Source: Amphiscolops sp. MND2022 (Eukaryota). Taken from it: a stretch of DNA of 64,000 nucleotides. Location: positions 37,386,001-37,450,000 of the forward strand of contig OZ076420.1 in assembly GCA_964187785.1 (NCBI GenBank), read 5' to 3'. The notes below the pieces were generated by a model. It worked only from the letters and a program-made list of their open reading frames with translations. It searched no databases and had not been told where the DNA came from. Shown piece after piece: positions 965 through 40,700 of this stretch. A program made the position numbers and the translations under genes. The first letter of the stretch is position 1; every line of letters starts with the position of its first letter.

Positions 965-3900
965 GTTAGTGATTCCTGAAGCAATGATTGTGTGTTAGTC
1001 ATCTCGTTATTATGGAAGTAGTCAAAACTGCGATTGCTAATATATTTGGTCTCAGCTTTTAATCTTTTGATCTCATGTGAAACCTGTTATCTTTCGTTCG
1101 ACATCAGTTAAATCATTAGTTCCTCGAAAACATCGCTGTCGCAGTTTTCCTTGAACACATGCCGCATTACCAATCTGAACAGCCCAGGGTTGTTCAATCA
1201 ATAATTGAAAAAAACAATCATTGCTAACAATTTTATACTTGGCATGGCTTCCAACTTCTGCAATAGTTCAAAAGTGCTAATTTTAATTTCATTTTTATTA
1301 TTACGCCTACTGTACCAAATGAGTTGTTTTTATAAGGTATAGTAATTAAGCGTCTTTCTCTCTCTCTCAATTCCCTTCCCAGTTATTGATTGCTAATTTT
1401 CCAATTATTGCCAATTATTTAGATGATCAAAACGCAATACCGAAGTTTGTCTGAAAATTTTTTAAAAGGTGCAGGACGCGGACGGAAAAGGACAATTGCG
1501 CTGTCAATGTGGTAAAATATTGAAAAAACAGATATTGGTCGAAGAAACTTCAAGTATTGACCAAGAAAACAATGGCTCGAATGCTCGTATATTCAAAAGT
1601 AAGCATTTCGATACTGGGGTAGTGAAAATACTGTAGCGCCGCGAAAATGACTTGGCACCAAAAAATTGCCTCTGCGAGACTTGCCTCAGTAATTCTCAAG
1701 AAGAAAGCAAGGATCACCATTGCATCAGAGTACCATGATTTAGAGTTTTTGTTGCCAACATCTAACTTGCTGGGAACATTTTTCATCCAGCTGGTTTGGC
1801 ATAGTTCAATCTGCGACAGACTGACACTCGAACATCTTCAGCAGTAGCTTTTCCTCAAAGCCAATAATAAACTGTCTGTGGACAACCGAGACTGTGTCGT
1901 GAATGCTTTTGTTAAGTGATTTGTTGTTTGAAATGAATGGATTTTTCTTTGTTGTTTTTCTTTCAATTATTGCAATACTTGCAAATATTTATTGGTGGGA
2001 ACATTTAGCAATATTTATTGGCGATATTCAAGTCCTTGCTATTAATTGCAATTAAAAATTGCACATCCCTGGAACAGCGCTTGAGATACATTGCTTCAAG
2101 AAGCTACTTATGGCATGTCGTCATTCCATAAAAACTGGTTCAAAAAGTCACATAATGTCGAAATTACCCAAAGCCAAAGGTGTAACCCTTTTGGCTCGAA
2201 AACGTATTTAATAAACTGGAAACATCAGAAAACCAGAGCAGCTAACGTCTGGCGAAGTCACGTAAGAAAAACGCACCTATCTGAAAAAAAATTATCTTTT
2301 TTCTACAATTATTGAGAAAACTCATAAGTCCCTTAGGGCAAAAAAAAACGAAATAGGTCACCGTTCTCGGAAAATATTTGGGTTTTTTGTCTAGCCAACG
2401 CACATGCAAAGGAACCCACTCGCCACATAGAGAACCTCACGTTAACCTCCAGGCCAAGTAGTAAGAGAATTGAAATGATAGAAATGTTTACGGCAGAAAC
2501 TGATGGGGGAAAATAAAACAAGCCGGGAACAACCCAAGTCGGCGCCCGCTCAAGTATCTTAAAAAAAACAAGTTCCTTATATGCAAGAGACACTGTTGTA
2601 AACAATGTTATCTACTTCTCAGTGCCAAAAAATATTAGTAGTAATAGACGGGGGGGGGTTTATGCACGTTTATGGCTCTTTTGAAAATTTTCGAAGATTT
2701 TCAATGCACGTTTTGGGCTCCCAAACCGAAAATTTTCTAAGTCAGAAAGGTCAAAGATCATTTTGTTTGAACTGTCAAATTTTGTGTATTTTACCACTCG
2801 GCTGTCAAATTTCATTCACTGTTCAAAATTTTAGTTTGAATTTCTCTGTTGGAAACCGAAACTGAACAAAGTAAACTGAGCTGACATTTCTGTGTCACCC
2901 TCTGATTTCTTATCAAATGCATTCAACCTTATTCTACATGAAGCAAAAGTAACTGAGACAAAACATTATACAAAATATCATATTGCTTAATTGAACGAAG
3001 TTACAATGTATATCTAACTTCGCATAACCTTCGAAAATCAATGTTATGAACTTTTCTTTCCAATTCTGAAAAACTAGAAAATAAACGAAAAAGGCTTCTT
3101 TTGGCAATTAAACCATAGTCCCCATTCAAAGAAAAAACGAAAAAATGTTGCGACATAATTGCAACTACAGACTAAGACATCAATAGGCATAATTAGATTT
3201 GAGGCTTTTTCGCGATCTGAAGCTTTTCAATTAGTAGTTATTGTGGAATTCTTCACATCAATGTTTTTTTACCTATAAAAATTTTTTGCGTGTTGCTTTA
3301 AAAGCGTGTTTTCACGATACTTTGAAGGGGACTATGGCTGTGAAAGATTTTGATCTGAAATGTACTCGTGTTACCAATGTGGGAAGGTTTTGATTTCACA
3401 ACGAGCACTAACAAATCATATCAAAACCAAGCACTTCGATGGTTCTCGAAATGCCAAAGTTTTCCAATGTGGACACTGTTCTGTTGGTTTCACCCAGGTC
3501 AAAAATCTTTTGAGACATCTACGTTCGCAACATCATTTGAATGGCCACTACCGATGTTCTTCTTGTCCCACTTTCTTTGGCTGTTCAACATCTCTCAATG
3601 ATCACGAAAATGACCATGAAATGGCAATTTCATCTCGACCGCGTGTTGCTGAAGAGTCATCAGTGGTTGAATTTACTACAAGAGCATTGAATTCCCGCTT
3701 TCAAATTCATCGAGTTGAAACAGGAAATGCCTCTTTTATTGACCCCTTCAACTGTTTGATTTCTTTGAAAGACAATATTTTGCGTTTCGTGAATTCCTTG
3801 TTGAACTCAACTGCGAGTGTTAAAATAGGATTTTCAATCAGTGTTGGATTGGTCAAACCCATCGTTGAAGAATCAACCGAAGCTTACTTTAATTCTAACA

Positions 3901-6900
3901 TGGTGAGACTGGCTGTTGAAATGACCGAAGAAGAGTATATGGAGCATGTTGATCAGCTAATTAGCCAGTTGAATGTTTTCGCTACCGGTGGTTCGGGCTG
4001 GGTTGTAGAAAAATTGATGCGTTTCGAACTGAAAACAGCTAAATGTGCTTCTGCTGTTGGTGGCTCTTACATTGAGACTCCAGCTATTCTCCAGAAAGTG
4101 AGTCGAAGTCTTTTGAATATCATCAATAAGAGAGACAACCTGTGCTTCATTTACTGCGTTGCTGCAGCTCTCTTCTCTTTTGTTGGACGTCCATTCAGGC
4201 CGAAGACACATCTGAAAAATGTTCAAAAATTGAAGTTCAATGCAAGTGAAATGCCAATGCCACTCTCTGGTATCCGATCGTTCGAGTTGCGAAACAAATG
4301 TAAGATCTATGTGTATCAATTGGATGGTAACAAACTGGTCAACGTTTACAACAGCAAGAACAAAAAGTTCAAACGAAGGGTGGATCTTTTGCGTTTAATC
4401 GAAGGGAAGAAGAGACACTATTGTTTGATTAGAAACTTTTCAAACATCATCCACCATTTATCAAGATCACCAAAGAAGCAAGCAAAGGGACCAAAAAGCC
4501 GGTTTTGTCGAAATTGTTATCAACCTGTCTTGAAACAGAACATGGAAAAACATTTGAAATTTTGTGAAAGCAATGCCCCTTTGGAAATTCGAATGCCCGA
4601 CAAAGAACGCGTTATTGAATTCACTAACTGGCAGAAAACACAATTGAATCCCTTCATAGTTTACGCCGATTTGGAAGCCATAAATGTGCCTTCAATAGGC
4701 TCAATTGGTTGCAAGTTGAAAACCCGAGAAGTGGAGCGGCATTATCCAGCTAGCTACGGTGCCATTCTTGTGGATGCTAAAGGTTTGTAGAACTTTTGTC
4801 TCGAATAATGCCTTAGTCATTTTTTAATTTTTTTTTCAATTTTTATTTTCAGCGGGTGGTGTAATCAAGAAGTCTTTTTACAGAGGACCGAATTGCATCG
4901 AAAAATTGCTTTCAGTTTTACGAGATTGGTGCAAATGGAGTTATCGAGAAAAACAGAAATTCAAATTCCTAAAGATGTGTAAAACGCAGAGAAAAATACT
5001 TTTGTCGGCGCCATCAGCTGAGTGCTGCATTTGTCACAAAACTTCTGAAGTGTCAAATCGAGTAATTCATCATTGCCACGTAACAGGCACAATTTTTGGT
5101 GTTGCTCACTCCAGTTGTAACCTGCGGGCCCAAACCACAAAGTTTCTGCCAATTTTCTTCCACAATCTTTCTCGTTATGATTCGCACCATATCCTTAAAA
5201 ACTTAAGGTTGCTCGCGGGAGAAAAATTGTCAGCAATTGCAAGAACTGACGAAACATTCACATCATTCAGCATAGCGGTACCTGTGGGGAGCTACAAAGA
5301 TAAAAGAAACAAGTTTGTAACTTTACGACATTCATTGAGGTTCTTGGACAGTTTGCAATTCATGTCGCAAAGTCTCGATTCTTTAGCCAAGACTGTGCAA
5401 CTACAAGACTTTGTTCTACTCCGCCGACACTTTTCCCATGTGACAGATGATTTGTTCCAGAAACTTACAAAGAAGGGACATTTCCCGTATAGTTTTTTGG
5501 ATAGTTTACAGAAGTTTGATGTAGCCTTGCCACCGTTCGGCGATGCCTGGAGAAACTCCTTGACTGGATCCATTGACATTACTTCAGAAGATTACGATGA
5601 GGCGGTTAGCATTTACAACGCCTTCTCTTGCCAAAATTTGGGCGATTACCACGACATTTACTTGGGAACAGATGTATTCCTGCTGGCCGATATTTTTGAA
5701 AAATTCAGAAAAGTATGCATGAACGTCTACAAGCTTGATCCATCTCACTTTTACTCAGCGCCCAACTTGAGTTGGGATGCCATGCTTATATCAACAGAAG
5801 CTAAGTTGGGTTTACTCGATGACATTGACAAACTTCTATTTTTTGAAAGGAGCATTCGTGGTGGAGTTAATGGAGTTGGTGAAGTTAGACAATTCAGGGC
5901 GAACAATTCAATGTTGGGTGATTATGATCGAAACGAAGTTACTACCTTTGGTGGGTTTTTCGATGTTACTTCTTTGTACGCAGGTACAATGCAGAAACTG
6001 ATGCCAAGGTGCGATTACATCTGGAACTCTACAATCACTTTGCAAGAAATACTTGAAACACCTGAAGATTCAAGCGTGGGATTTTTTGTTGAAGTCGACT
6101 TAAAGTATCCTCAACACTTGCACGACATTCACAATGGATTGCCTCTAGCGCCAGAAAAACTCGAAATTCGTTCGTCTTGGTTCTCCGACTATGCGAAAAC
6201 TTTCAAAGTGCAACCCAACAAGTCCGCCAAATTGGTGGAAACATTGTTCGACAAGAAAAACTATGTTTGCCACTATGAAATTTTGAAATTTTATGTGAAG
6301 CATGGATTGATTGTTGAGAAGTTACATCGAGTTTGTCAGTTCCAGCAAAGTAGATGGTTGGGAGCGTATATAGAAAAAAATACAACAATGCGCAAACAAG
6401 CCGAAAACGACTTCGAGAAAGCTTTTTTCAAGTTGATGAGCAATGCTTGCTTTGGAAAGACGATGGAGAATCTGCGCAAACGCAGTAACATTCGGTTCCT
6501 CACGAATGTTGAGGAAGCAGAATCTTTTGTTAACAGTGCCGCTTTCAAGGCTTTTCACATTATAAGTGAAAACCTAGTTACAGTTTCCTTCAAGTCTACC
6601 ACTGTTCTTTGGGATAAACCAACTGCAGTTGGGGCCTCAATACTGGATCTCTCAAAGCTGTCTCTATACAAGTTCCATTACGAGGAGATGATTCCCCGCT
6701 ATTCCGCAGACAGACTGAAATTGGCCTACAAAGACACTGATTCACTTCTCTACTGCATTAAAACTGTAAACTTGTACGAGGACATGGCTAGTTTCAAACA
6801 TCTGTTGGACTTGTCCGACTACCCTCGAGAACATTTTCTCTACGATCCAACAAATAAGAAAGTACCATTGACCATGACAGATGAACTTCAAGGCAAAATC

Positions 6901-9900
6901 CTTAGAGAAGTAGTGTGCCTCCGGTCAAAATTGTACAGCATTGACTTTGTCGGGGGTAAAAAGCAGAGTGCTAAAGGTGTCGGCAAGGCAGTGAAGAAAA
7001 CTCTCAATCACAACATTTTCAAAGAGTGTCTTCTGAGCAAAAAATCAATCAGCAAAAAGATGACTCAGTTGAGGTCTGTCAACCATCAAATCATTGTTAA
7101 TTCAGTAGACAAAGTTGCCCTGACGTCCTTCGACGACAAACGTTACCTTTTGGACGATGGCATCCATTCCCTCGCCTATGGCCACTATGCTATTCCTGCA
7201 TCTACTGAAGGTAGTATTCATAATTTTTAACTAAAAAGAAAAGTGTTGAATTTTAACTTTTTTTTCTAATTTAGCCCGTTCAAATACTTCTGACGACAGC
7301 GGAGCTAATAGTGACAGTGAAAGCAGCGCTTCCACTTCTGAAGAATTTTATTCGGATTGTGACAATGGAGATTCATTCACGTCTTCATCCTCCACGTCCT
7401 CGTCCTCAGAAACAATGTCGCAAGATACTCCATTGAAACGAACCTGGTACTCGGATGTGGCCCAATTTTGTAAGTAATCTGTTCAGAAAAAAAATATATA
7501 TTTTGTTCTCATGGCTTGCTTGATTGTTTAAATTGAATTTTCGTAAATAGGCGCCCCTGATCCTGGTTTCAATCAAACTTTATCTGTCGGCAACGACGAG
7601 GATCAACTGTCTGACATTGTTGATTGGGACAATCTGTCAGTAGAATATGCCAGTGATGACAACGAATCCCGGTATAATTGTCCATTCAACGACTATGAAG
7701 CCGAACATTCAAGTGATGACAGTGTTGGCAACCACACGAGGAGAAAAGTTTCTCGCAAAACCACATTAAACCTAGTGAATTATTCTTCCTCTAACAGTGA
7801 AAATGACAGTTGTTGATAGTGGTGTTGGGAAATTCTTCGGAAACGTTTCAATTGGAAAATTTGTAATAATCGTAAATTTGTACATCGGAACATTATGTAT
7901 TTATAAAATTAATAAAATCAATCTCTGTAGCATGCATCAGGTTTTGCGAATTGCCGAACTTTTGCAAGGTTTTTCTACAATGTAAAATATCGAAGCAAGA
8001 CAGTTTAAGCCACGCCTACAGCTGCTAAAATTCTTTTGGGCTAGCCTAATCATTCCGCATCTTTTTTGAATAGTTTGGGTTAAAAGTCTATACATCGGAA
8101 TTGAAGTTTTTCATACAACAATATATCTAAAGTGGGTTTTGTATTGGCAATTCATAAAACGAACAATTTCAACTTCAGTAAAGTGCTTTAGTTTGGCATC
8201 AATGTTCGGTACCTTTGTTGGGTTCCTTGCAATGTAGTCAATCATGAAGAGACAGTAGAGACCGCACATGTTTGAACTCAAATTTTGTAGGCGTAAGTTT
8301 ATCGTCAAAAATCCAGTCTCTCTGTACAAAAGTCTCAGACGTTGAGCAAAAGTTTTGTAGTGCGACAAGGGCTGACCCAGACAATCCCAAATAAAAACTC
8401 GGATACTGCTTTGTTTAGTTACCACGGCACCCAGTAGCAGCCAATGTTTTCCCAATGCGCCCGCTGGGGATGTGTTGATAATTTGGAACCAAGCCAAACG
8501 AGGTCTTGGGTACAACATGTTTTTCTGTCTTCGCTTTTTGTTCCATGCTGGCTGCTTGGGAAAATTGTCGGCAGACCAAACACCAGCGAAACTGGTAATT
8601 AAACGTGGATTCTGTATAATAGCACTGTGCAACGTTCCACTATCCATCAAACGAGCTGTTTTTCTTGATATTGCGCGCAGAGTCAATGAAAACCTGACTA
8701 AATCGCTCCCCAATCAAAAAGAGTTCAATGGCATCATCAAGTGCTTTCTCAAAGTACAGCTTAAGAGTCAAACTGGATCCCGTTAGCTCGGGAAAAAGTG
8801 TAAAGGTTTTACTAGCTTCTTCAGTTGATGTCAAGTCGAACACAAGAAAGAAATGGTTGTCTGTGTAATCCTCCAGGCTGATACCGTTACTCTTTTGGGT
8901 GAATCCAAGGGCTGTGATGGTGTTGTAGTACAATCTCACATTGTTTGTAGTATCCAATGGTGTCCCTGCTAAAGGCACACCATTGCCCCTTTGGATTTCC
9001 ACTCTTTGCAAGTTGAACTTTTGGTATGAGAAAGGAGACTCGTTCAGTGGCGTACTACGGAACAGAGAGTTTTTAACCATGCACAAAGTTAGTCGTCGAA
9101 TCGGCTCGGTGCCAAAAACGTTTTCCTTGATGAAACAATTCTGTCCGGCTTGAATAATGAAACTTTTGTTCAAATTTTCAATATATGGATATATTGCATC
9201 GCTTTTCACCAATGCTCTCTCTATTGACAGTTTAACACTGTCTGTCACCACAACTTTCCTCACAAAAAGGGAAGCCTTCTCTACAATGGCCAAGAGTTTT
9301 CCTTCGTGTGCTTTTGCTTCGTCATCGGTGCCTTTGAGATGGATGATTGTGTTACTTGGCGAGCGATAGAGCCGAATATGTAGGGTGACATTGGGCAGTA
9401 AAAGTTTTTCGCAATCCAAAAAGTCAATGTGGAGAGCACCGCATAACTGCATTTTGCATTCTTTCAGTTGAGCAAAATCAGCTGCAAGCTTGTTGAACAT
9501 TTGATCCTTCTCATTGGACTTGGCTAAATAGTTGTAGCCTTGACATTTGGCCCACGAAGCTTTACTATCGGTGTCGGTGGTCAATTCAGTTTCCACAAAG
9601 GCTGAATGCAAGTAGCAATTGTTGCTGTGAGAAATCAATTTTCCATTTAGATACAATTCTGCATGGGAAAAGAGTGTGTGGAGGGTATTGTTGGAGAAAA
9701 CGGCTTCAAAGTCACCTGGTTTAGCCTTTGTCTTTCCGTCATCATGATAGATGGCAACCTCAACACTGAGAACAATGCGATTCAAGTCAATCAAATTTTT
9801 CGCTTCAGCGGCAACAAAAAAATCCAATTGAGGTCCACGGCATCCCACGTGCGGGAAAACTTCTTGGTCGTAGGACCCTTCGTAATTGATCATTACTTCA

Positions 9901-12900
9901 GGCTTTTCGAAATAGTCTAGAGCGCTGTGTGTCACTGGTTTTGCAATTTCCAAGGAATTGCCAACAAACATATTGTTAACTGATGCCATCCTCTGAACTT
10001 GACTCTACTGGGCAAATTGAATTTCAGACAAAATGTCGGACCGACTTCTCTTGGCGCGGGCTTTTGTTGAAATGTTTGAAAGATTACTCCGCTTTCTATT
10101 CCCCGATGATAATTTGACGTTTCGTGTAATTCCTTCGTTCGCTGCCGCCGACCGCCGCGGTCCGGGCTTCCGCCGCCGGGCCGCAGGGTAATTCCGCTCG
10201 GCAAATTTGTTTTCACCGTTTCGAGGGCGGTCCTTTTGACGACATTAGTCAACAGCTTACGGCTGGGCTTCTTCCTACCTGTCAAGATCTGTCCAATTTC
10301 AGGAACGGCGCTTTCTATCAAGTTTTTGCCGACTTGCTTTGCTACAGGTAAGATGTACTTTCTAACTAGTGGAATGGCCACACGACCCATTCGGACAGCA
10401 AAAGCTCCAATGCCACCCCCAGATCCCATCTGCCTGGCTGGACCGCTGAACGTTGAGTGAGTGTTTGCTTTAATTTGTGAATCGTAATGAGCATCCATTC
10501 TGGAGCTAATCGAAAAACAATTGTTCAAATGGAGCGACTGTACTTTTCACGATTTCCAGGATGAATGATGCCCAGTCAATGTCGTGGTGCTGGCCTGAAA
10601 GCCAGAGTCACATTGGTGCGACCGCAACTCAAAAAGGGCATTTTTTGACCCATTTCATTAGCAAGAAAAACATTGATTGACTGGAATTGGGGTTTTATGA
10701 CGCGTTTCCATTGCAGATTAGTAAAACTTTTATGATTCATCTCTCCCAACGTCTGTACCATTGTTACACTTTTTAGAGGAACTGATCGCAAAAGTGCCGT
10801 CTGCTTGTCGCCCAATGTTTGGTTTTGTACGAGGTCGCAGTACAAAAACATTGTATGGCTGCCCGCATTCAAGTCGACTGGCCATTTTCCTACATGTTTG
10901 ACAATTGTGTTTGATGGAGATTCTGCATCGATCTTTTCCTCTTCTTTAGGTCCCTCACTACAATCAATGATTACATTGGTGCCCAAAATGTTTTGCAAAT
11001 CATTGGACTCTGTGAAAACTTTCAGTCCATCTTTTTCAATGCTTCCACAAAATTTCACATGTATTTTACCCGAGACTTTGTCAATTTTCCATGTTAAAAG
11101 TGACGGAACAATGTCAGGCGATGATGCGTTCCGTTTCTCTCCAACTTTTTTCTTTCCGGTGGCAATTTTTGAGATTGCTTCTAAAATTGATTCTACTGAT
11201 GTATAACAACCCGGTTTTATGCGGTGCGTTACAGGAGCAGTGTATGAAGGAGGCAAAGCTTGGGTTCGGAATGGTGCAGGAGTCGTCATTGAAATTCCAC
11301 CGTGCAAAATGTGCTTGCGTGGTCGCTTGTCGATGGGTGGCTGGATGTGTCTTTTGGATACAGTAAATTCGCCCACAGTCACATTTTGAACGCTATTGGG
11401 CCAAGCAATCTCCACTAAAGCCACCTGCCATTCTCCCGAAAGATGGATTGGTGTTGGTAAAAGTGTCGTAAAACTGGACAACGTGTTCTCGGGGAAAGTA
11501 TCCATGGAAGCATTAGAAACGAGATTCATGGTGAATTCTTGTGAGTAACTTGAATGATCAAAAGTTCCTGAGGGTCCGTCCATTGTTGAAGACTGTCAAT
11601 GTGGAGCGAATCGCACGAGTTCAGGCTCGTAAAATTTACCTTGGATAATTTCGCCGTCACAATCTTTAACAACGTAAGTTGGAGGATTGGTAGTTGGTAT
11701 TGCTGTAATTGTGAACAGTTCTTCTGTGAATTGTATTTTGTAACCTCGATGAAAAGTGTCAATCTTTCGTCGAATGCGAACTTGTTGGCCGATTTTGAAC
11801 TTTGGCTTCTTTTGAGCGTTTGTGTGACAGAGAGAAACTAAATAGTTGACGTCTTTATTTGAAACTGAAGACGGCGCTAACTTCGTCATTCGATTCACCC
11901 GATTGTTAATGATTGCCACAAATTGGTGAAGTTTATCACAATATCTACTTTGGTCATGTTCGTGCATATATTTGAATATTAACGATTTTAGAGATCTAAT
12001 ATTTCTTTCGGCTAATGCAGACTTTGTCTCACTTTTGGTGGAATAAATCTGAATCCCCTTCTGACTGCAAAAAGTTGCAAAGTCGCCCGAAAACTCACGT
12101 CCCTTGTCAACCCAAATTTTTTCTGGGCTTTGCCTTTCACTGCAAATCTTTGGTTTAGGTGACTTCTCATTCTTGGCAATGATTGTTTTCAAAGCTTCTC
12201 TACATGACTGTGCTGTTTTCATCTTGATGGGTTCAACCCATAAATAACGACTCAGGACGTCTACAGCCACAAATAGATATCGGATGCCGGAATTACTGTT
12301 TGCCAGCTGTTGCATGTCAGCCAAGTCGACCGACCAAATTTCATTCAGCCTATAGCAAATAACTTTCAACCGTGGAAAACGTTTTCTAGTCAGTTTGAAT
12401 TTTGTGTAAGTTTCGCTCGAGTTCAAATAACGTTCTACATCTTTTGGACGTAACTTGGATTCTTTTATCAAGTTTAGTCTACCCCCGAAAGCAGACCCCT
12501 TTTTAGGGTTGGTGTAGTAATCGTGGATTTTTGTGAAGGCAGCTGCGTAGTCTCTGTCTACTTCGTCATTTAGCAATTTTCGGTGTTTTTTGCAATTGGA
12601 GCACAAGAAATTGTCGTGATAGTCTTTGCTGTCTGTTAGTCCACTGCATTTGAAGTGAACCCATCCGCAAACGTGACACCAAAGTGATGGAGTTTTCTTT
12701 GTCCCTTTACCCAGACCTGTTTTGCATGATCCACAGAACCACTTCTTATTTTTCATTCTCAAAAGTTCGTGAGCCACTGATTAGGTGCGATTTCGTTGTC
12801 GAGCTTCTGTCTTTTGTAGGGTGAAGCACCGGCAGCAAGTCTAATTTGATGTTGATTCTGACTGCTAGTGTGCCTTGCATAGGTGTTGGCCAGTAAAAAT

Positions 12901-15900
12901 TGCGGAAGTCTGAGAACTTCAACCAAAGTTAGAAACTTTTTCGGCAACTGTTTAGTATTCACCTGCAATGCAGACAAAAATTCAACTACACTGATTCCTG
13001 TGTCTTGTTGGTCCAATAATATAGTATGATTGGTGTCATCTATTTTGGTTCGCTCACAATCTTCAATCTTCTTCAAAATTTGTCGTGATCTCTCAACTTT
13101 TCCGCCTGTGACACCAGATTCTAGTAAATTAGACAAAACTTGATCGGAGGGTTTCTGACGTGATTCGTTCACTTTTTCACTGCTTTTAGTGAGCTCCGTT
13201 TCTGTAGGATACCTTGAATTTAGATTCATCTGCGCCACTAGAGCCTCTTCTGATAACTGTTTTACTGGCTCAGAAACGTTCATATTTTGTTCTTGATGCA
13301 CATGTTGTGGATCTTGGCCGACGTTTGAAAGTATTTGTTGCTTTTGCTTTTCGCGACCGTCTGGCTTCTTTGCTTGTTGTTTCAAAGATATATATTCCTC
13401 GTGAGTAATGAGGATGAGATTGCGTAGGCTACTGATCGCTGTCATGGCACTTTTTCAAATGACTCTGAACTGATGGAAGGACTACTTTCAGCAACCGCAA
13501 CCCTCTGTCAGAGCCTAAAACTTGACGCTTTCTCTTCAAAGAAACTCGTTTCTTTGTGCAAATTGTCTCAATGTTGCTTTTTTCTCGTGACAATAGAGAC
13601 ATTTTTTCTCGCACGTTCTTTTCCAGCGAGACTTTCCCCTTTACTACGTTGAAAATGCAATCACAAAGAAATTTAATTATTTCGTCGGGACAATGGAGAA
13701 TCAAAAACTTTCTCAGAGTAGGTGAAAATTTTTGGTACAAACTAAGAGTATAATAATTTTGTAAATTCATCATTAATTGAAATGAAAAGTTGATCTGTAG
13801 CACAATGAAAATGAGTTGGTTCGTCTCCTGAGCAATGAGAGGAATATCTCAAATTTCTACTACTTCGAACATCTAGGTCGATCATCAAATGACCAAACGG
13901 GTGTTGCGTAGCCCTTTTATATGCCTTCATCAAAGTTGATCGCTCGCCCAGTTGACGTCCCAAGATTCCAATTTGTTCCAAATCTCGAGGGCTGTTGAAC
14001 AGAATCATCTGAGTGACATTCAGATCAATCGTCTTTGCGTTTTTCGACTGCTGGTAAAGATTATGTCGCAGTACCATTAAATGTACATTTTTATGTCGAC
14101 CTGCAATAACTAGGTCTAGAAACTCTTTAGTTTGAGCCGCTTCATCATACAAGTCATCAATAACAACCAAAGTTCTCTGCTTCAGGGCCTCACTTCGCTC
14201 CAGAACGTTCCACTCCAAACCTTGAACTAGTTCAAGATCGACAGCTTTAGTTGAACACCCAGCTTTAAGTTTTTCATAAGAATCTTGCCCGTGTTTGTAA
14301 AAGTAGATAATTCTATCGAAAAACGGTCGGAAAATTTTCTCCTGATTCGTAATCATCCTTCCAATTAAGTTTGTCTTGCCACATCCAGCGGGGCCAATGA
14401 TTGAAATGAAGCAATGCGGATTGGTGCTAATTCTCTTGTTCATGATTTCGGGCCGGGTATAACGTGACCAACGCAAGCTGAAAGAATTGCCAACACACCT
14501 GAGGCAAATTTGCTCTCTGCTTCACAAAGGGACAGAAATACAATACAGAAAAATATTACAGCGAGAATAATAACATAATGGATGCAAACTAGGACCAACG
14601 ATCTCTCGATGCGCGATTCACAACAGTCAAAATTGTATGGAGGTCTTTCTTCGTCTTTGTTGTTGAAAATAATTCTTTCCAAATTTGGAACAGACAAATC
14701 AGCGCAGTCAAGTTGGTCTTCTTGACTCCCGGAAAGGTTCAACGTCAACTCGCTACAATATCCACTGCTCTGACAGGTGTCCGTGTTGCTCATAACCGTT
14801 AGTGTTTGGAAGTTATGTTGCGACCGAACTCAAGGTGGTTCGAGAATTGGAATGAATGTTTAGAATGGGAATGCATCAAAGTGCTCCGGATGGAAAATTT
14901 TAACAAACGTCCAATAAGCTATCCCGGAGACATGTCCTAGGAGCATGTTGTTGCGGAAGGACTGTGTTTTCGTTATGGTGTAAACATAGCCGGGTCCAAC
15001 GTTCTCAAAACTTCTCATATAACCATGTGCATCATGAAAAATTGCATGCAATCGCAATATTTTTGAAAAATTGAAATAGTTGTCTAGTTTACTGTCTCCT
15101 GGTCCTATTTTCCCGCCAGAATGGGCTAAAACATTGACCTTTCTCAAATCAACATTTTCATCCAGATAACGGCACACTGCTAGGAATGCGTTTTTAGTGG
15201 TAGTGTTTCTTGGAAACAAATAATTTACGGCGTTGAAGTTCTCACAAATTTCTCTCGCTGAAAACATTTTTGCTTCGTGAAAAGAATTGTATTGGATCCA
15301 ACTGTTTTCTAGAAAAGTTTTTACAAAAATGAAGTATCAATTATAGTGTCTTCATTGAAGAGAGAAAATAATTGAGTGTTTCTGTTTTGGTCGTCTGGTG
15401 TTTCATGTAATGGTTGATAGAGACACTCGTAGCATGTGCATTGAGCATTTGAAACACCCAAGTCAATGTCCAACGTTCGGCTGTGCTCCGTAACGAAAAA
15501 TCGTCCAACCCCTCGCTGCAAAAGATCGATGTAGGATATAATTGTGTCTTTGAAAGGTGCATCACTTTTCTCGAGCTCCAATAGTTTCTGGAAAACGTAA
15601 AGAGCCTTTTCACTGTCGGCACAGTTTCCAAATGAATTGTTTTTCTCAAGTTCCCATAAAGATACAAAGCTGCAACCCAAACTCACACTCGTTTTCGCCT
15701 TTATCAGCTTCTGCATTTTTTCTCCTCTGACTACCAGTGATTCATCGCAGTAGATTGACGTTTCTGCTTTTGAAAAATTCTCAGGGTATGAGACGGTTAA
15801 TAGTTTGACTTTGGCATTGTGTACATTCGACAGTGTTTGAGAAACTGACTGCTTTATCAACTTCTCGCCTCCAGCTGAATGGGGAAGGTAGAGCAGAATG

Positions 15901-18900
15901 TGATAGTGATTTGAAGGCATCCACTGGCAGAAGTCCTCGAGTTGACCATCGCTATTTTCTTGGATGTTGTGCTTCCTGTAAAGGAACTGACAGTCATTTG
16001 AGCTGGTTAGCTTCTCGAGCATTTCGGCAACGCTCGATGGCATGCCTTGGTTACTTTCTTTCTGAGCTCTAGAACCGCTTGCGACCTTTTCAGTTTTTTC
16101 ATCAGTGGAAAATAGAAGAAGCCAATAGTTAGATGGTATTTCACGAAACACAGTCGTCATTTGAATTAGCTGCTGATTTGTAATGAAGGAATTTTATATT
16201 TGACGTTTTGGCGAACAGTTATCTGACTAATTGCGTCAGTATCTCAATTGGAAGTTTCCTAGGCACGTAGATAGCAACTGTCCCTAAAAGGAGAAATTTC
16301 ATAGAAATGATAGTTGTAGCTTTTTCTATTATTAGGCATTGATTGATGTCCTATGGCGTTTGTCTTCAGCTGATGAGAAATTTTAGTGGATTAGTCTTAT
16401 AGGCTGTAGGATGTCATACAACTAAGCATTAAGTGTAAAATGAAAAAGCAAGATACTGCCGCTCGTGTGTTTCTAGTTTCTCAGAACATGGAAGACTTCA
16501 TTCTGCCTTTATCAAAGTCTCTTTTTACATTTACTTACACTCCGTCATTGTTCCGCCAACGAAAGGTTAGTTTTCTTCAAATTCTCCTGCAAGTTTATGC
16601 ATGTTTACAGCTCTTTAGCTGAAATTCTTCGAAGATTCTCTTGCACTTTTTGGGCTCCCGCGTCGAGATTATCAGAAAAGTCTATTTTGACGTATAGTAA
16701 ATGAAATTTGACAGCCGAGTGATAAAATATACAAAATTTCACAGTTCAAACAAAATGATCTTTGACCTTTCTGACTTAGAAAATTTTCGGTTTGGGAGCC
16801 CAAAACGTGCATTGAAAATCTTCGAAAATTTTCAAAAGAGCCATAAACGTGCATAAACCCCCCCCGTCTATTACTACTAATATTCGAAGGGATACGCGAA
16901 GACTCGAAAACCAAATTTTCACCAACTGGAAACAACAAAGAACCCATTTTTTGAAAATATATTTTTTTCGTGATCTTTTGTTAAGCAAACTCTCATAGTG
17001 CTGAAAAAGAAGTTTCAAGCTCGCCATAGGCTTTCTCCAGTCGAAAATAATTATGAAAGTGAAGAGGTACATTTGACCAAACAAGATTTTTTTTAAGGAA
17101 AGTCGCACGGTGCCGAAAAATACCATAGGTCATTTCCACAGTTACGAGCTCTACCAATCCTAACAGATGGATTGAGGAAAAGTTTTGAATAAAACAACTG
17201 TTTCTGTTCTGGAAAAGTTTCCAACTCTCATTTGCAACCGTGACAAACTTTAGTGCTCTGGAAGATCCTCAAGGGAAACACTGAACTCTCCCACCGAGAA
17301 AATTAGTTTTTCGAAGGAAAACACTTTTCACCAGCAAAAGAAACACCAGTCAACTCCTGCAACTGTTAATGAAACTGACATGATCCAATCGGTCACATCG
17401 GCAAAAGTTCGAAATGCTATTAACTGAATCGAAACAGTATAACTTTCAACCCCGGTGGTTTTCATCTCAAGTTGCTGAAACCCTCTGGGCCTTTGATCCT
17501 ACGCAGGGAGGAGTTTGTTGAACTATTCTTAGCGGCCAGGATATAAATTTAGGGGAAAGGCAAACTCATTTTACAGGCGAATGAAGGTAGAAAGATCATC
17601 TACAGGAGGCCTAAAGTTATCGGCATATTATTTTTTCTTAGCCTCATTGGAAAACTTTTTGAATCCATTCTAGTTGAGAGAATAAACTTTACCACAATCA
17701 AAATTAACTTGCTAAGTGCTAGAAAAGTTGCTAAGTGCTGGAAAAAAGTTTACGCAGATACTATAAGATATTCACAGACAAACGATGCGAGAAATTCAAG
17801 ATAAAAGGCAGTTCATATATGGATAGACTTAGTCAAAGCTTCTGAATAAATTTCCTAACATTCAATTTTCTCGAATCTGGCGACGACGGAACGTCAGCAG
17901 TGCTCGTCAGTGTTTTTGTGTATTTTGTATTGCGATTTTATTGCGAGAACCTTAGTTGCGTAGGTACGGGTGTTCATTACTAACGCGAAAATTCTGCGTT
18001 GTTTCCTAATACACACTCCCACTGAAGAAACTCGTGGTTTCAATATCAAAAACCACGACTTTCTTCAGTGGGACTTTTCAGTGAAAAATGGTCGAATTTG
18101 TCATTATTAAACGTTGAATTAAACGAATTCATTGCATGATTCATTGCGAAAAGTTTCTGGTCTATTCTGTAACCTTTCATTTGTTTCAGCCAAGAGGAGG
18201 AGCATCTGAATTCGCTTGTGATCTTTTTCGTGCTCACTATTCTACTGCTTTGCATTTTCCTTGTCCACTTTCTCATTCGGTTCAAGTTGAATGTATTGCC
18301 CGAATCAATTGCAGTCATCTTCCTTGGAGCTATAGTTGGACTTGTTCTCAAGATATTGAACAGAAATAACATACTCGACCTCCAGGTATCTTCGTTTCCA
18401 TACAATTTCAACCTGCTTGACTGTGTATTCTGTTTTACATTTCTTTAAGTTAGTTTGAAGTGTTCACTTACTGCAAATGCGACTTGAAATTATCAACAGT
18501 GATGATAATTTGTATAAATCGCCTGTCTTCATGACCCTATTACCACGTTTTAAAACATTTTCGCATCACTAGAAATCTTATGACAAGTTTTATATTGGGC
18601 TTATTTGAGTACCTGGAAACTAACTTTCTCGTGAATCGACGTCCTTTGCTTCTGAAATTATCTGGGAGACCAAAAGGGTTCAAAAACATGCGCTAATTGT
18701 TTACAAAAAGTATCTGGAATTGAAAACGTATACTGGAATTCACTCAAGCCTCAAGGGTGTTCATCCTGTTTTTTGATCACTTACTAGTTTAATTGTTTGC
18801 TTACAAGTGCAGGTATTAATTTTGTTTGAATTGTAATTCAGTCCGTTCCCTTCTCTTGTAACTGTAGTGTCGCTGTTTCAGGATGCAGAGACCTTTAACC

Positions 18901-21900
18901 CCACCGTGTTTTTCCTGCTCTTCTTGCCTCCTATCATCTTCGAGGCCGGCTACTCCCTGCATAAAGGAAACTTCTTCCAGAACATCGGCTCCATTCTCAC
19001 CCTTGCCATATTTGGCACTGCTATCTCGGCCATGGTCATCGGAGCAGGTGTGTACGTTCTGGGTATCGCTGGACTCGTGTATGAGCTGAGTATAGTGGAG
19101 AGCTTTGCTTTCGGCAGTCTCATTTCGGCCGTTGACCCCGTCGCCACTTTGGCCATCTTCCAGGTACCTGGTTTTGTTGACTGTATTATGGAAAATTGAT
19201 TGCACTCGAGTAAATCGGTCGGCGCTTGATCAATGTGCAACTTTGCTCTGTTTTCCTTTTGCATGTCTGAGACAGTTGCCATGCTGAAATTGACGTGATG
19301 GTTTTTTGACATACGATACAAATCTCGATGAATGTGGTTGGCAGCCTTAAAAACATGAATTTCAACTAGGGTTTCATTGAAACTAGTGAAATTTATTGTG
19401 ATTTTTCGTCCGTAAACGAAATCACACTACATTTTCACTAGTTTCAATGAAACCCTAGTTGAAATTCGTGCATGTTTTAGAAGTTGCCAACTACTTTCAA
19501 GATTTTCTAAAACTTCTTCCGATAGTATGTAGCATGGGGAAAGTTCCGGCAGTCATGAAGTTCAGTTAATGAACTCTTTCAGCGTTTTAGCGATACTGAA
19601 ATAAATGGTTTTACTGTTATCGAGAAAAGCAGCGGTGATCAAATTTAATAAGACCCCTGCTTGCTTATTTCCTAGTTAATCAATCAGATATTTCTTCCCC
19701 GTTATCTCACTGAAAAAAAAAGTGGAACCCGTTAGTTGAATGTGTTTACAGGCTTTGGACATCGACCCAGTTCTGTACATGTTGGTGTTTGGCGAAAGTG
19801 TGTTGAATGACGCAGTGGCAATTGTCATGACAACCACCATTCTGTTGATGAGTCACGCGGACTATGCAGCCATGTCAGGAGTCTCGCTGCTCTTCTTCGG
19901 CCTAAAACATTTCATGGTCATGTTTTTTGCGTCCTCCTTCCTCGGCGCAGTGTTTGGGGCTGTTTCAGCCCTTCTACTCAAACATTTCGACTTGAGGTAA
20001 GACTATGAGCTGTTCACTTTTGGTGTGGACTGTTCAAACCATAGGTCGAGGTGTTTTACGGGTGAATTATTGTAGATTCTTTGATTATTCGGAATCAAAC
20101 ATTTTCTTTTACTGGTCGTCCTCTTTTTCAAAAAGTGCAAGTATTACAGTGTCAAGTTTTATTTTCTCCAGCTGTCACTGTAATGACCTCTTTTTTGTTC
20201 AGTTTGTTCAGCTTCGTTAGTAGTTTTATACCCTTCTGGAGCGAGTGTAAAATGCATCTTAGCACACAGATTACAAGGCATGAAGGTAACAAAGGGTCTC
20301 TTAGATCTTTTGTTGTTCAGTTAAGCAAAAGTCTCCATTAGTCCGAAAGCATTTTCAAAAGTATTTTTTTGCGCTTTTGAGCCTCAAGCGGGGCGCCGAC
20401 TTGGACCGTATCAAGTTTATTTTATTCTCTGATGAAAACTTACTTTGTTTGTTTGTTTACAAAACTCATTTTTTAAAAGCTAAGATTGTTCGGACAGAAA
20501 CGTCAGAATCAGCGCAAAAATATCTGGTTGCTTTCAACCCAAAGTGGCAAGCAACTTCAAATATAATTTAGCATCTACTGCAGAAGGTTCAGAAACTAAA
20601 AAAACTATAAAATGCGTGTATTTAATGTTTCATTTCATTGCTAATAAAATTGTGATCTAATCTCAATCCTGATTTGTAACCCTGTTTTAGCGACACCCCA
20701 TCCCTGGAGTTCGGTTTCATCCTCATCTTCGCATATCTGCCCTATGGACTCGCAGAAGGAATGCACCTCTCAGGGATCATGGCTGCTCTTTTCTGTGGCA
20801 TCACCATGTCGCATTATACCCATGTCAATCTGTCTCCCATGACGCAAATTACTGTCCAACAAGCCTTTCGCACGATGGCTTTCATGGCTGAAAATTGTGT
20901 ATTCGCATATCTCGGTCTTGGTAAGCCTCAAATTTGTTACTTCGTTATCTTCAACTGGCTTACGTTTAAAAGTCACGTCATGTTTTCTGACGTTTTAGCG
21001 ATCTTCTCGTTCCACCACCGTGTGGAAGTGGCCCTTATAGTGTGGAGTCTACTGTTGATCTTGGTCAGCCGTGCAGTCAATATCTTCCCTCTTTCCTTTA
21101 TCCTTAACTTCTTCCGCGACCACAAGATCACACGCAAGATGCAGACTATCATGTGGTTCTCGGGACTACGTGGGGCCATCGCCTTCGCTTTGTCCCTCTT
21201 CCTCAACTTCGGAAACGACAAACACGAAGTGATCAAAACCACAACTCTCATCATCGTTCTTTTCTCAACCCTCATTCTAGGAGGTTGGTATCACTGTTAC
21301 TTGCCATCCTTCATTATGATTCCAAGTCCTCTTGGGTATTAGCTAGTGGATCCTTCCTATTAAATGCTCATTTTGTATGATCCCATCACGTTTTTTTGTT
21401 GAAAATGTATCAGTATCAGATGCAATGCTGAGAACCACATGTAATCAAGGTTCTTGTGGGTTTTTGCAAAACCTTGTGACTCTCATTGAGAAAACTATTG
21501 TTTTAATGCACAGATGAACTGATATTTTTGACAATAAAATAGCAGAAATCTGGTGTTTAATTTAAAAACAATTCAATCTTGAGATTAGCGATCAGTGGTT
21601 TTCAGAATACTATCGGCGTCTCTTGGTACTGTCAAATTCGGAAAAGTTTTTTAATTTTCGGACTGTCCGACGAAATGGACTGCAACTCAAGCGGTTAGCC
21701 GTTGTTTAGAAAAGCGGAATAAGCGAAAAGCGCACATCCAAAAGGCGAGCGTAACGATTAACGAATTTTCATTACCGAGTCAATACACTGGTTGAGATTT
21801 TTTGCTCTGTATGAACTGAAGATAAAACCTGCGTTTTGATTCATTATTACAATCCTTTGAACAGTTGCGCATGAGTCCCTTTATTTAATATGTCATCTTT

Positions 21901-37700: not shown

Positions 37701-40700
37701 AGAGCCACCGAACAAACCCGAAAGTTTTACTTTGAGGGTCCTTCCCCCGAACAATTTAAGGCTTTCAATGTTATTGGAAGCTTTCTTCGCGGCCTTCCCA
37801 ATGCCTCTGTTTTGGCCACGTGTTCCCCGATCCCAATTTGACCTTGCCGGTCTCCTACTACCGTGGCTACCCAAAACCGCGAGCCCTCGTATGTTCTGGT
37901 TTTGTTACGACAGGATCTATTTTGAGAACCAGAATGTCAAAGTTTTCCTTGTTTATCCTGGCCGTTTTCTGAGGTTTGCCCAGAGTTACAGCTCCAAGTT
38001 CTGAGGTGAAGCCCTCAGAACTTTCGGGGATGAGAGAATTGACAATTCAGACAACGAACTAGACGATGAAGGTGATGAGGGGGAACTAGATGAGCTGGAC
38101 GATGACCCAGAACTGCTGGGTGACCAAAAAGTAATCTATGAAACCAGCGACATTTATTTGCTTTTCAAACAACAGATCTGAAAAAATATTAGGAGCCTTT
38201 TCGCTTACTGTTCTGTTCCGAAGAACACCGGGCAGTTAATACAACTAGGTAAACAATAACTATTCAGTATAATTATGAAGTCAGAAAAAATGAGCATGGA
38301 AACAGAATTATATACGTCAACTTAAATGACAATATACAAGACATTTGAAAATTTCACATGGTGTGACTCGAACCCACGTGGACCATACCGTTGGTTTTTG
38401 CAAACATCAGCGTTAACCACCCAGTCATATGGCTGACTCACACCGTGTTCTGGTTGCATCTCAATAATGAATAATTACATGAGACACTAGCCGGCCTCAA
38501 TTTCATTCATTGCACTGAATGAAATTCGATGTGAACGTTCAATGCACAAGGGTAAATGCATCATTCCAAAGATCTGATCGAAATAGATTTGAAAAATTTC
38601 TACCAAAGCCAGAAACCACGTGGCGGAGTGGTAAGCCACCCGACTGCTGTCGCGAAAGTCGTGGGTTTGAGCCCCACCATCGTCTAAATGTTCATTATTA
38701 TTTATGACCCGCTAAAAGTAAAAATCAAGCAGTACTTACCTCGGGTCACGTGTTTTAAGACCCACCAAAATTGTTAAGCATATCTTGCTCCACTAGTCAC
38801 ACACATATACTACATCCCGAGACCCCCAAAACTTCTGAGAACACCTGTAATTGTTCGGTAAAACGCGATCTTGAGATTGACGTTGAATACACAAAAAAAA
38901 AACAGAATATAAACAACAAATGCGAGTAGTTAAATAGTTACAGGAACATAACTGGGCTACTGCTTTGTGGAAAGTCAACAAGACAAAGAACACAAAACAT
39001 AAATTGTACACAAAGCGAATGGATATAATTGTAATATCAAATATCATCGTCCATTTCATGCTACGCTTGAAAACGTTTTTATTTTTTTTTGCATTGCTCA
39101 TCAACGTGATGTTAAGATTAACGTTAGTTACATAACAGTGATAAACATCAAATGCAAGTAGTTGAATGATAACAGAAACATAACTGGGTGACTGTATTGT
39201 AGAAAGTCAACAAGACAAAAAACAAATAAATAGTACATAAAGCATTTGAATTGCATTGTGAAACATCAGTAAGACGAAGATCATTTCTACATAAAATAAT
39301 CACCAAATGCATGTCATGATATCACCCGATTTCTGAGTTCGTAACATCTCGTATTTTCTCTAGGAAAAAGCTATGTGCATTTTTGAGACTTAAGATTTCT
39401 TTTCGGCATTCTTTCAAGCTGTAATAGACTGGAAAATGAATAAGAAAGTGAACTAAAAGTAAGGTATCTCAAACACAAAGTTTATGTATGATCATGTACA
39501 TTGATCGCTAGACTATATCGTGAGTAGCATCAACAAAGAATGTTCGTACAATGAGGTTTATGTTAACAGGTACTATGAACTTAATTGTCACAGTGGCATC
39601 ATCTCTCATTCCCCCCTCTGTAGTTCAGGGAAACCATTGCTGATTCTCGGTTGGTGTCCACTTGATCGGGGCTTTAGCTTGCGCGTTGTCTTTCTTTATC
39701 TTCGGGAAAGGAGTCCGCAGAAATTATTGATAGTTGCTGCAAACTTGTAAGTGATGATTTCTTCTGGTGTAATGCTGTTGAACTCGCATTTTCTCTCAAT
39801 ATCCACAAGTCTTTTCCAATATTCATCCAACGTTTCACTGTCTCGTTTAATTTTGAAGAATTGTGGTCGACTGTGGAATACATTTCTTGCAGGAATAAAT
39901 GTCGTATTGAATAATTTCAGCAGCTCTGGGAGATCAATGTCTTTTAGTTCTTTGCCCCACTGGCCTCTCATTATTTCGTGTTTGGCCTTGGGACCTAATG
40001 CCCAAATGACGTCTCCCTTGATGTGGTACACCGTATGCGGGTCCATTTGATCGATGCCTTGGTCCATCAGTTCATCCAAATTTCGGTTATACGTAAGGTG
40101 TATATACTCAGAAATTTGCTCCCACCACATTCGTGGGTTCATTTTGGTCAGGTCCGTCTCCCTGTCCGATAAAATCGAAATTTTATATTTGTTCTTCTCC
40201 AGTCGGTCTGCTGTTGTCTGATTCATTATCGTCTGATTCGCGGCCGGTTGGCCCGATTGTTCCGACGTACTCGGGTCTAAATTGTTGTCCATTAGCTTGC
40301 TGGCTGCGCCATGTAATAGACTGGAGAAATGAGTAAGAAAGTGAATTAAAAGTAAGGTATCTCAAACACAAAGTTTATGTATGATCATGTACACTGATCG
40401 CTAGACTATATCGTGAGTAGCATCAACAAAGAATGTTCGTACAATGAGGTTTATGTTAGCAGGTACTATGAACTTAATTGTCACAGTGGCATCATCTCTC
40501 ATTCCCCCCTCTGTAGTTCAGGGAAACCATTGCTGATTCTCGGTGGGTTCCCACTTGATCGGGGCTTTAGCTTGCGCGTTGTCTTTCTTTATCTTCGGGA
40601 AAGGAGTCCGCAGAAATCATTGATAGTTGCTGCAAACTTGTAAGTGATAATTTCTTCTGGTGTAATGCTCGAATAAATATTCCACAATCAGCTACATGGC

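Follow-up and report, generated by a model that had tools for sequence, protein, structure and literature searches.

We analyzed a stretch of 64,000 nucleotides from the genome of Amphiscolops sp. MND2022 (contig OZ076420.1, positions 37,386,001 to 37,450,000 of the forward strand; hereafter the window), which contains a complete Polinton at window positions 2637–16878. The DNA polymerase gene of this element, pPolB, is split by three conserved phase-1 introns that the host major spliceosome likely removes, yielding one tail-bearing polymerase. We give this reading a probability of roughly 0.78, with splicing itself inferred from the comparison of DNA sequences. Once joined, the exons likely encode a single polymerase of ~1,413 residues whose C terminus forms an acidic tail.

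Structure of the split pPolB gene

The gene occupies the plus strand and is divided into four exons. Exon 1 (3360–4782) contains three C2H2 zinc fingers (Pfam zf-C2H2), a predicted terminal-protein and vOTU region (Cys motif at 4137–4157, His motif at 4416–4430) and the Exo I motif (4662–4676). The terminal-protein and vOTU labels were assigned from motif positions and from the pPolB architecture given in the available text of PMC11161782, not from a predicted fold. Intron 1 (4783–4852; 70 nt, phase 1, GTTTGT...TTTCAG) separates Exo I from Exo II, which begins at 5155. Exon 2 (4853–7210) carries an endonuclease VII-like insert, Exo II/III and polymerase motifs A–C (PF03175, E 4.9e-21; PF02945). 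Directly past the polymerase core lies intron 2 (7211–7274; 64 nt, phase 1, GTAGTA...ATTTAG), followed by exon 3 (7275–7469), an open-frame, Ser/Asp-rich, low-complexity linker of symmetric phase (1-1). Intron 3 (7470–7550; 81 nt, phase 1, GTAAGT...AAATAG) precedes exon 4 (7551–7816), which aligned with the other copies as a conserved acidic tail with PDPG-F, D-W/F-D and CPFI-x-x-EA motifs, followed before the TGA by a basic patch, a possible nuclear localization signal.

These coordinates agree to the nucleotide with a sequence-only reading of the window, and all three introns have GT-AG ends and phase 1. Exons 3 and 4 are stop-free in the required frames up to the TGA at 7814–7816, which bears out the frame that the reading had followed through introns 2 and 3. 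Its description of the introns as short and T-rich relative to coding DNA was also accurate: the T content of introns 1, 2 and 3 is 56%, 47% and 42% and their GC content 23%, 17% and 25%, compared with a GC content of 46% in exon 3 and 42% in exon 4.

Retention of any intron introduces an early stop: a TAG at 4788–4790 for intron 1, a TAA at 7228–7230 for intron 2, and a stop two codons in for intron 3. Because the TAA at 7228–7230 comes after all catalytic motifs, introns 2 and 3 would govern only the C-terminal tail, and only the removal of intron 1 would be needed for the whole catalytic core. The proposal that replication of the element depends on the host spliceosome therefore stands for intron 1 and does not extend to the other two.

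Intron 1 across copies of the gene

A protein search of the genome yielded 151 matches from 150 scored among 2,074 candidates. We compared 76 loci, namely the window, 15 loci from a DNA search and 60 from the protein search; the last were picked for long open frames and coverage of identity groups and are a selected sample rather than a census. By our own grouping, the 76 loci were sorted into ten families (A, B, C, D1, D2, D3, E, E2, F, and G). The exon 2 identity of intact copies to the window was ~58–75%.

An exact GT-AG, phase-1 insert of 60–88 nt was found at the intron 1 codon in 50 of the 76 loci (families A, B, C, E, E2, and F), and a single codon with no insert in 20 (families D1, D2, D3, and G). 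The remaining six comprised two inserts with one end off, two deletions and two unmeasurable cases. The lengths of the 50 inserts were distributed over all three classes modulo 3 (10, 16 and 24 loci). Two loci with long open frames (L057 and L059) were considered as intronless and rejected, both having an insert with a length that is a multiple of three.

In an alignment with the protein P0001, exon 1 residue 474 corresponds to P0001 residue 472 and exon 2 residue 1 to P0001 residue 474; therefore, exactly one codon lies between the two exons. Removal of intron 1 thus restores the length of the continuous homologues, as the same single codon separates the exons in the 20 insert-free copies and in P0001. 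The joining of two open reading frames (ORFs) within the exonuclease domain by excision of 4783–4852, as first proposed from the window alone, was confirmed in this way. For introns 2 and 3, removal was checked by frame and motif order only, because the linker varies.

A continuous ORF in relatives could have meant that 4783–4852 was an insertion specific to the window copy. Such relatives exist (20 of the 76 loci), yet the insert is common to six diverged families and one metagenome contig, always at one codon. Three metagenome loci were compared in total. One contig carries a 111-nt intron at the intron 1 codon and groups with family F, a second has introns 2 and 3 at the same positions, and the third, a distant relative, is unbroken at the intron 1 site. 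The recurrence of the same intron positions in metagenome contigs rules out an assembly artefact.

Selection on exon 2 was estimated from nonsynonymous (pN) and synonymous (pS) differences. Among families A, B and C, pN was 0.15 versus a pS of 0.82–0.87, indicating strong purifying selection. Representatives of families A, B, C, E and F had stop-free exons 1 and 2, and their catalytic motifs mostly fit the patterns. No Met is conserved near the exon 2 start, and the first 110 residues of the family B or C representatives contain none. Lacking both Exo I and a conserved start, exon 2 is implausible as a product on its own. As purifying selection on exon 2 continued after the gain of intron 1, intron 1 is presumably spliced.

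Splice signals and intron interiors

Intron 1 was placed by protein alignment alone. All six representatives of the families with intron 1 have GT at +1/+2, GT at +5/+6 and a terminal AG; at shifted offsets, the dinucleotides occurred in at most one of six, except at +4, where the GT is that of donor consensus positions +5/+6. The chance of finding GT and AG at fixed places, calculated from intron composition, was 0.0006–0.003 per family. The acceptor AG of intron 3 was present in 10 of 10 representatives, compared with none at control offsets −9 to +8 and two at +9. Among 23 introns of family representatives, A at +4, G at +5 and T at +6 were each found in 17, and all 23 ended in YAG after a T-rich tract. 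The introns thus display the features of the U2 type: GT...AG ends, a GTRAGT-like donor and a pyrimidine-rich YAG acceptor. Words resembling the branch-point type CTAAC/CTGAC were spotted by eye, unscored, in intron 1 of families E and F. The window copy of intron 2 also offers an alternative frame-keeping donor 3 nt downstream (7214); we preferred 7211, the position also used in families B and C.

The intron interiors could not be aligned between families. Similarity exceeded z = 3 in 0 of 10, 0 of 36 and 1 of 36 between-family pairs for introns 1, 2 and 3, respectively, and no conserved internal motif was detected in this comparison. The sites were kept across families, and the cross-family comparison argues for the spliceosomal identity of all three introns. 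The introns are also unlike each other (z of 0.4, 0.5 and −0.8). The sequence of intron 3 matched only nine family A copies, and all matches to the intron 1 region were pPolB copies. A current introner family was rejected, as the introns are mutually dissimilar and the searches with intron 3 and the intron 1 region gave no matches at unrelated sites; an ancient introner origin is possible.

In the mechanism that we favor, host Pol II would transcribe pPolB in the nucleus and the U2 spliceosome would remove the introns. Translation would then give a polyprotein with the order zinc fingers, terminal protein, vOTU, exonuclease, polymerase and tail. The introns are most likely constitutively spliced and nearly neutral, although intron 1 would tie production of the polymerase to splicing.

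A doubtful but conceivable alternative is that the introns, though real, serve as a regulated switch, the splicing state of the host setting the timing of element replication. Retention of intron 1 would then give only the N-terminal terminal-protein/vOTU part, and retention of intron 2 a tail-less polymerase; the germline-restricted splicing of the P-element transposase is an analogue. Several observations point this way. Introns were detected in pPolB alone: at the resolution of tblastn, with one element partial and some ORFs partly covered, the other 11 ORFs, on the opposite strand, had no frame-breaking, intron-sized gap in 21 elements. In the window copy, an in-frame stop follows within a few codons of each donor, and the introns were retained while their interiors diverged past alignment. 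However, any AT-rich intron would be expected to contain early stops, the interiors share no detected motif between families, and four families are successful without intron 1. We regard as equally doubtful the wider claim that an animal polintovirus lineage has its replication gated by host splicing, with regulated retention switching among the N-terminal product, the tail-less polymerase and the full tail-bearing polymerase; in that case, intron-bearing Polintons would be a widespread class missed by ORF-based surveys.

Evolutionary history of the introns

Two quick trees were built from natural exon 2 frames (36 and 19 rows). In both, the families with intron 1 formed one clade (SH-aLRT of 99 and 98), and families D and G and the proteins P0001/P0002 fell outside it. 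The simplest reading that fits these trees is that intron 1 was gained a single time. The earlier gains were probably those of introns 2 and 3, which would have entered the variable linker joining polymerase and tail before the divergence of the ten families. A later, probably single event in the common ancestor of six families would have placed intron 1 inside the exonuclease domain. DNA-to-DNA replication of Polintons offers no routine route to intron loss. The introns likely persisted because the element copies DNA to DNA, leaving no reverse-transcribed mRNA by which they could be removed.

The opposite polarity, with introns predating the clade and families D and G, like the database relatives, having lost intron 1, seems improbable. 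Counts of changes on the tree leave the direction unfixed, and the placement of family G is open in one of the trees. With the outgroups used, however, this history takes at least two or three losses against one gain, and all other pPolB proteins in a protein database search were continuous ORFs, though that search can list only such forms.

The family D3 element (L081/L121) is mosaic. Its pPolB exon 2 is 80–82% identical to that of families D1/D2 and 66% identical to that of family B, whereas its integrase, ATPase and homologue of a 339-aa ORF are 81–88% identical to those of family B and 44–59% identical to those of D1/D2. This suggests that a family carrying intron 1 and one lacking it have exchanged modules.

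Introns 2 and 3 and the acidic tail

The motif of the last-exon tail was found in 72 of the 76 loci, 68 of which have the intron 3 acceptor AG at the same place. A two-intron solution with phase 1-1 was obtained for 64 of the 72, including members of the four families without intron 1. Exon 3 is open in nine families, with 57–69 codons in the family representatives. In exon 4, pN (0.04–0.41) was lower than pS (0.23–0.98) in 11 of 11 pairs, and differences at codon positions 1, 2 and 3 numbered 170, 121 and 293, indicating that exon 4 is under purifying selection. In exon 3, pN was lower than pS in six of six pairs, a weaker signal than in exon 4.

The tail also occurs in continuous proteins. 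P0001, which is 58% identical to exon 2, is a single ORF in which one residue joins the counterparts of exons 1 and 2 and an acidic linker then leads to the same tail motifs, although its tail match by itself is weak (E 0.007). No viral contig was matched in the search with P0001. A profile made from ten natural exon 4 peptides retrieved 58 proteins, 14 of which match the end of exon 2 in the same chain by BLASTP and alignment; a strict regular expression gives just six continuous tail proteins among the 58, and the BLASTP count was used. P0001 and these 14 matches mark the tail as a natural part of this pPolB clade. A tail module of this kind (window 7551–7816, P0235–P0263) was observed on pPolB C-termini of the wider clade, after a variable linker. 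The acidic tail at 7551–7816 had no convincing match in Pfam. The predicted fold of P0070, a natural tail-bearing protein, had a pLDDT of 49 with the tail mostly unstructured and is uninformative on binding.

Twenty-four short database ORFs (P0208–P0265) start just upstream of the tail motif, and 19 of them have S or L where read-through of a YAG acceptor predicts it. ORF callers register the final exon as a very small protein of its own. Another database protein, P0215, was considered as a spliced product of exons 3 and 4 and rejected: its residues before the motif match read-through of the family B intron end, and we take it to be a deletion copy.

It is very unlikely that intron 1 is real but pPolB stops at the TAA at 7228–7230, with exons 3 and 4 forming a separate small transcript. 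The catalytic core is indeed finished before intron 2, and PDPG-F was present in just one of the 60 long pPolBs from the protein database search and missing from the other 59. Against this, P0001 and the 14 profile matches have the tail in frame with the polymerase end, a phase-1 donor lies 43–55 nt past residue 770 in nine families, and exons 3 and 4 have no conserved start codon. Least probable of all is that the segments are never spliced and are disabling insertions whose carriers rely on families D and G for mobilization in trans: insert-free families do coexist in the genome and many copies have decayed, but exon 2 stayed strongly constrained after the insert arose, the exons of the five family representatives are stop-free with mostly matching catalytic motifs, splice-consensus ends are kept while interiors are randomized, and insert lengths in every class modulo 3 exclude a single frameshift mechanism.

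Several points weigh against three host-spliced introns in one polymerase gene. The sites of introns 2 and 3 were chosen with our own consensus-favoring score, making the consensus counts partly circular, and the intron 1 donor of the window copy (GTTTGT) is weak. Eight of the 72 tail-bearing copies have no phase 1-1 solution, and the two copies of family E2 have no clean one for intron 2. Exon 3 is weakly constrained, with a pN of 0.41–0.58 between families. P0001 may derive from either DNA or a transcript, which weakens the polarity of introns 2 and 3. Finally, the trees are quick searches with SH-aLRT support only, and the placement of family G is weakly supported.

The element and its surroundings

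The element is bounded by 6-bp target-site duplications (AATATT at 2631–2636 and 16879–16884) and by terminal inverted repeats. The left repeat (2637–2829, ~190 bp, starting AGTAGT) is identical to the right repeat (16684–16878, minus strand) at 187 of 192 aligned bases. Target-site duplications were legible in the window element and 11 others among the 21 elements. Three sister copies show 98.9–99.3% identity across ~10 kb, in a host genome of 1.07 Gb.

In contrast to pPolB, the other genes lie on the minus strand. They include a Ulp1/adenovirus-like cysteine protease (8111–8713; Pfam C48 and C5, PF02902/PF00770), a retroviral-like (rve) integrase (11596–12780; PF00665, E 1.3e-10), an A32-like packaging ATPase (13742–14521; PF04665, E 1.4e-6), and small ORFs. 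The ORF at 8640–10004 was assigned as a double jelly-roll capsid protein from its predicted fold, a low-confidence model (pLDDT 48). Every PDB match listed for this model was a capsid or capsid-scaffold protein (PBCV-1, mavirus, Sputnik, PRD1), and its BFVD matches were mostly capsid proteins; a PDB sequence search and PHROGs gave no identification. The 339-aa ORF at 10576–11595 is a candidate minor capsid protein by position and size only, with no match in Pfam or PHROG. With its terminal repeats, target-site duplication, pPolB, integrase, ATPase, protease and capsid fold, the element is a Polinton/Maverick by every classifying feature examined other than the minor capsid protein, for which it has a candidate.

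A small basic ORF upstream of the capsid gene (9932–10546, minus strand) is conserved in all families shown. Compared with the sister copies, its window copy shifts frame in the GC-rich middle and is broken at that place; we considered this frame change as an intron and rejected it as a small indel in a GC-rich stretch. Elsewhere in the genome, two loci (L085 and L113; G000 C12, ~58.07–58.09 Mb) contain tandem partial copies of pPolB, protease and capsid genes with a spacing of ~5.8 kb.

An ATG is present at the aligned pPolB start (3360) in seven of nine families and also in E2; in family C it lies 3 nt upstream. As most families have an ATG at the aligned start, an upstream mini-exon leader is not needed. 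Both copies of family D1 (L076 and L074) lack an ATG there. In the window, an out-of-frame ATG 23 nt before the pPolB start opens a short ORF (3337–3396), and comparable upstream ATGs are visible in families B, C and D. Downstream, an AATAAA at 7911–7916, 95 nt past the last stop, is a weak candidate for a poly(A) signal; such signals were inconsistent, occurring within 200 nt in only four of ten family representatives.

Outside the element, the window contains a host gene for an NHE8-like Na+/H+ exchanger (18190–22485, plus strand), whose named relatives are animal proteins with ~60–69% identity. Its intron ends, judged by eye, are similar to those of the element. A repeat array with units of ~1.6 kb and strong strand skews occupies 38850–50200.

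Comparison with known systems and significance

The window element resembles vertebrate and nematode Polintons/Mavericks (polintoviruses, adintoviruses) in its terminal inverted repeats, 6-bp target-site duplication, pPolB, rve integrase, A32-like ATPase, protease, double jelly-roll capsid and size of ~14 kb. It differs from them in the three conserved introns and the acidic tail module of its core pPolB gene. The element thus departs from a reported though non-classifying trait of Polintons, the lack of introns in core ORFs. Replication or transposition enzymes whose expression uses the host spliceosome have been described in element classes other than Polintons, with a spliceosomal intron in a chlorovirus DNA polymerase, spliced adenovirus E2B mRNAs and intron-bearing DNA transposases. 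That nuclear DNA viruses and DNA transposons can have host-spliced genes is thus familiar in principle, and what is new, as far as we are aware, is the occurrence and traceable history of such genes in Polintons.

Three papers describe Maverick or endogenous-virus genes as intron-free, including PMC8097293 and PMC10120064. According to their available text, genes were called with prokaryotic ORF finders in PMC10120064, and intact elements were defined by intronless ORFs in PMC8097293. Introns have been found in related elements. As far as the available text of PMC12166617 goes, dinoflagellate eupolintoviral elements likewise contain spliceosomal-type introns, in the form of introners, ~25% of which are in coding regions. 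These are repeated, transposon-derived and mostly inserted after integration, whereas the window introns are mutually unlike and their sites are inherited across families under selection. Nematode Mavericks also carry intron-containing genes (wasp, krma), but in the sources as available these are captured host-type cargo, unlike the element's own replication gene that is split here. Cryptophyte Polinton-like viruses have introns too, but those in the available text of PMC12220804 are self-splicing group I introns of 309–376 bp in a small ORF, not in pPolB. In the available text of the Polinton/Maverick literature searched, conserved spliceosomal introns were not reported for pPolB, with an earlier mention possible in two key papers, Repbase and supplements that the search left uncovered.

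The comparison adds to a split polymerase gene a traceable, probably single gain of intron 1 and a conserved tail, and exposes this C-terminal pPolB module without a convincing Pfam match. Elements like the window Polinton would be scored as broken, or missed, by surveys that assume intron-free genes or rely on ORFs. Because one genome holds both families that have the intron and families that lack it, placed on a resolved tree, this is a rare case in which an intron gain would be traceable. For the biology of these elements, the pPolB introns argue for a long history of nuclear transcription in the host and for a tie to hosts with compatible splicing.

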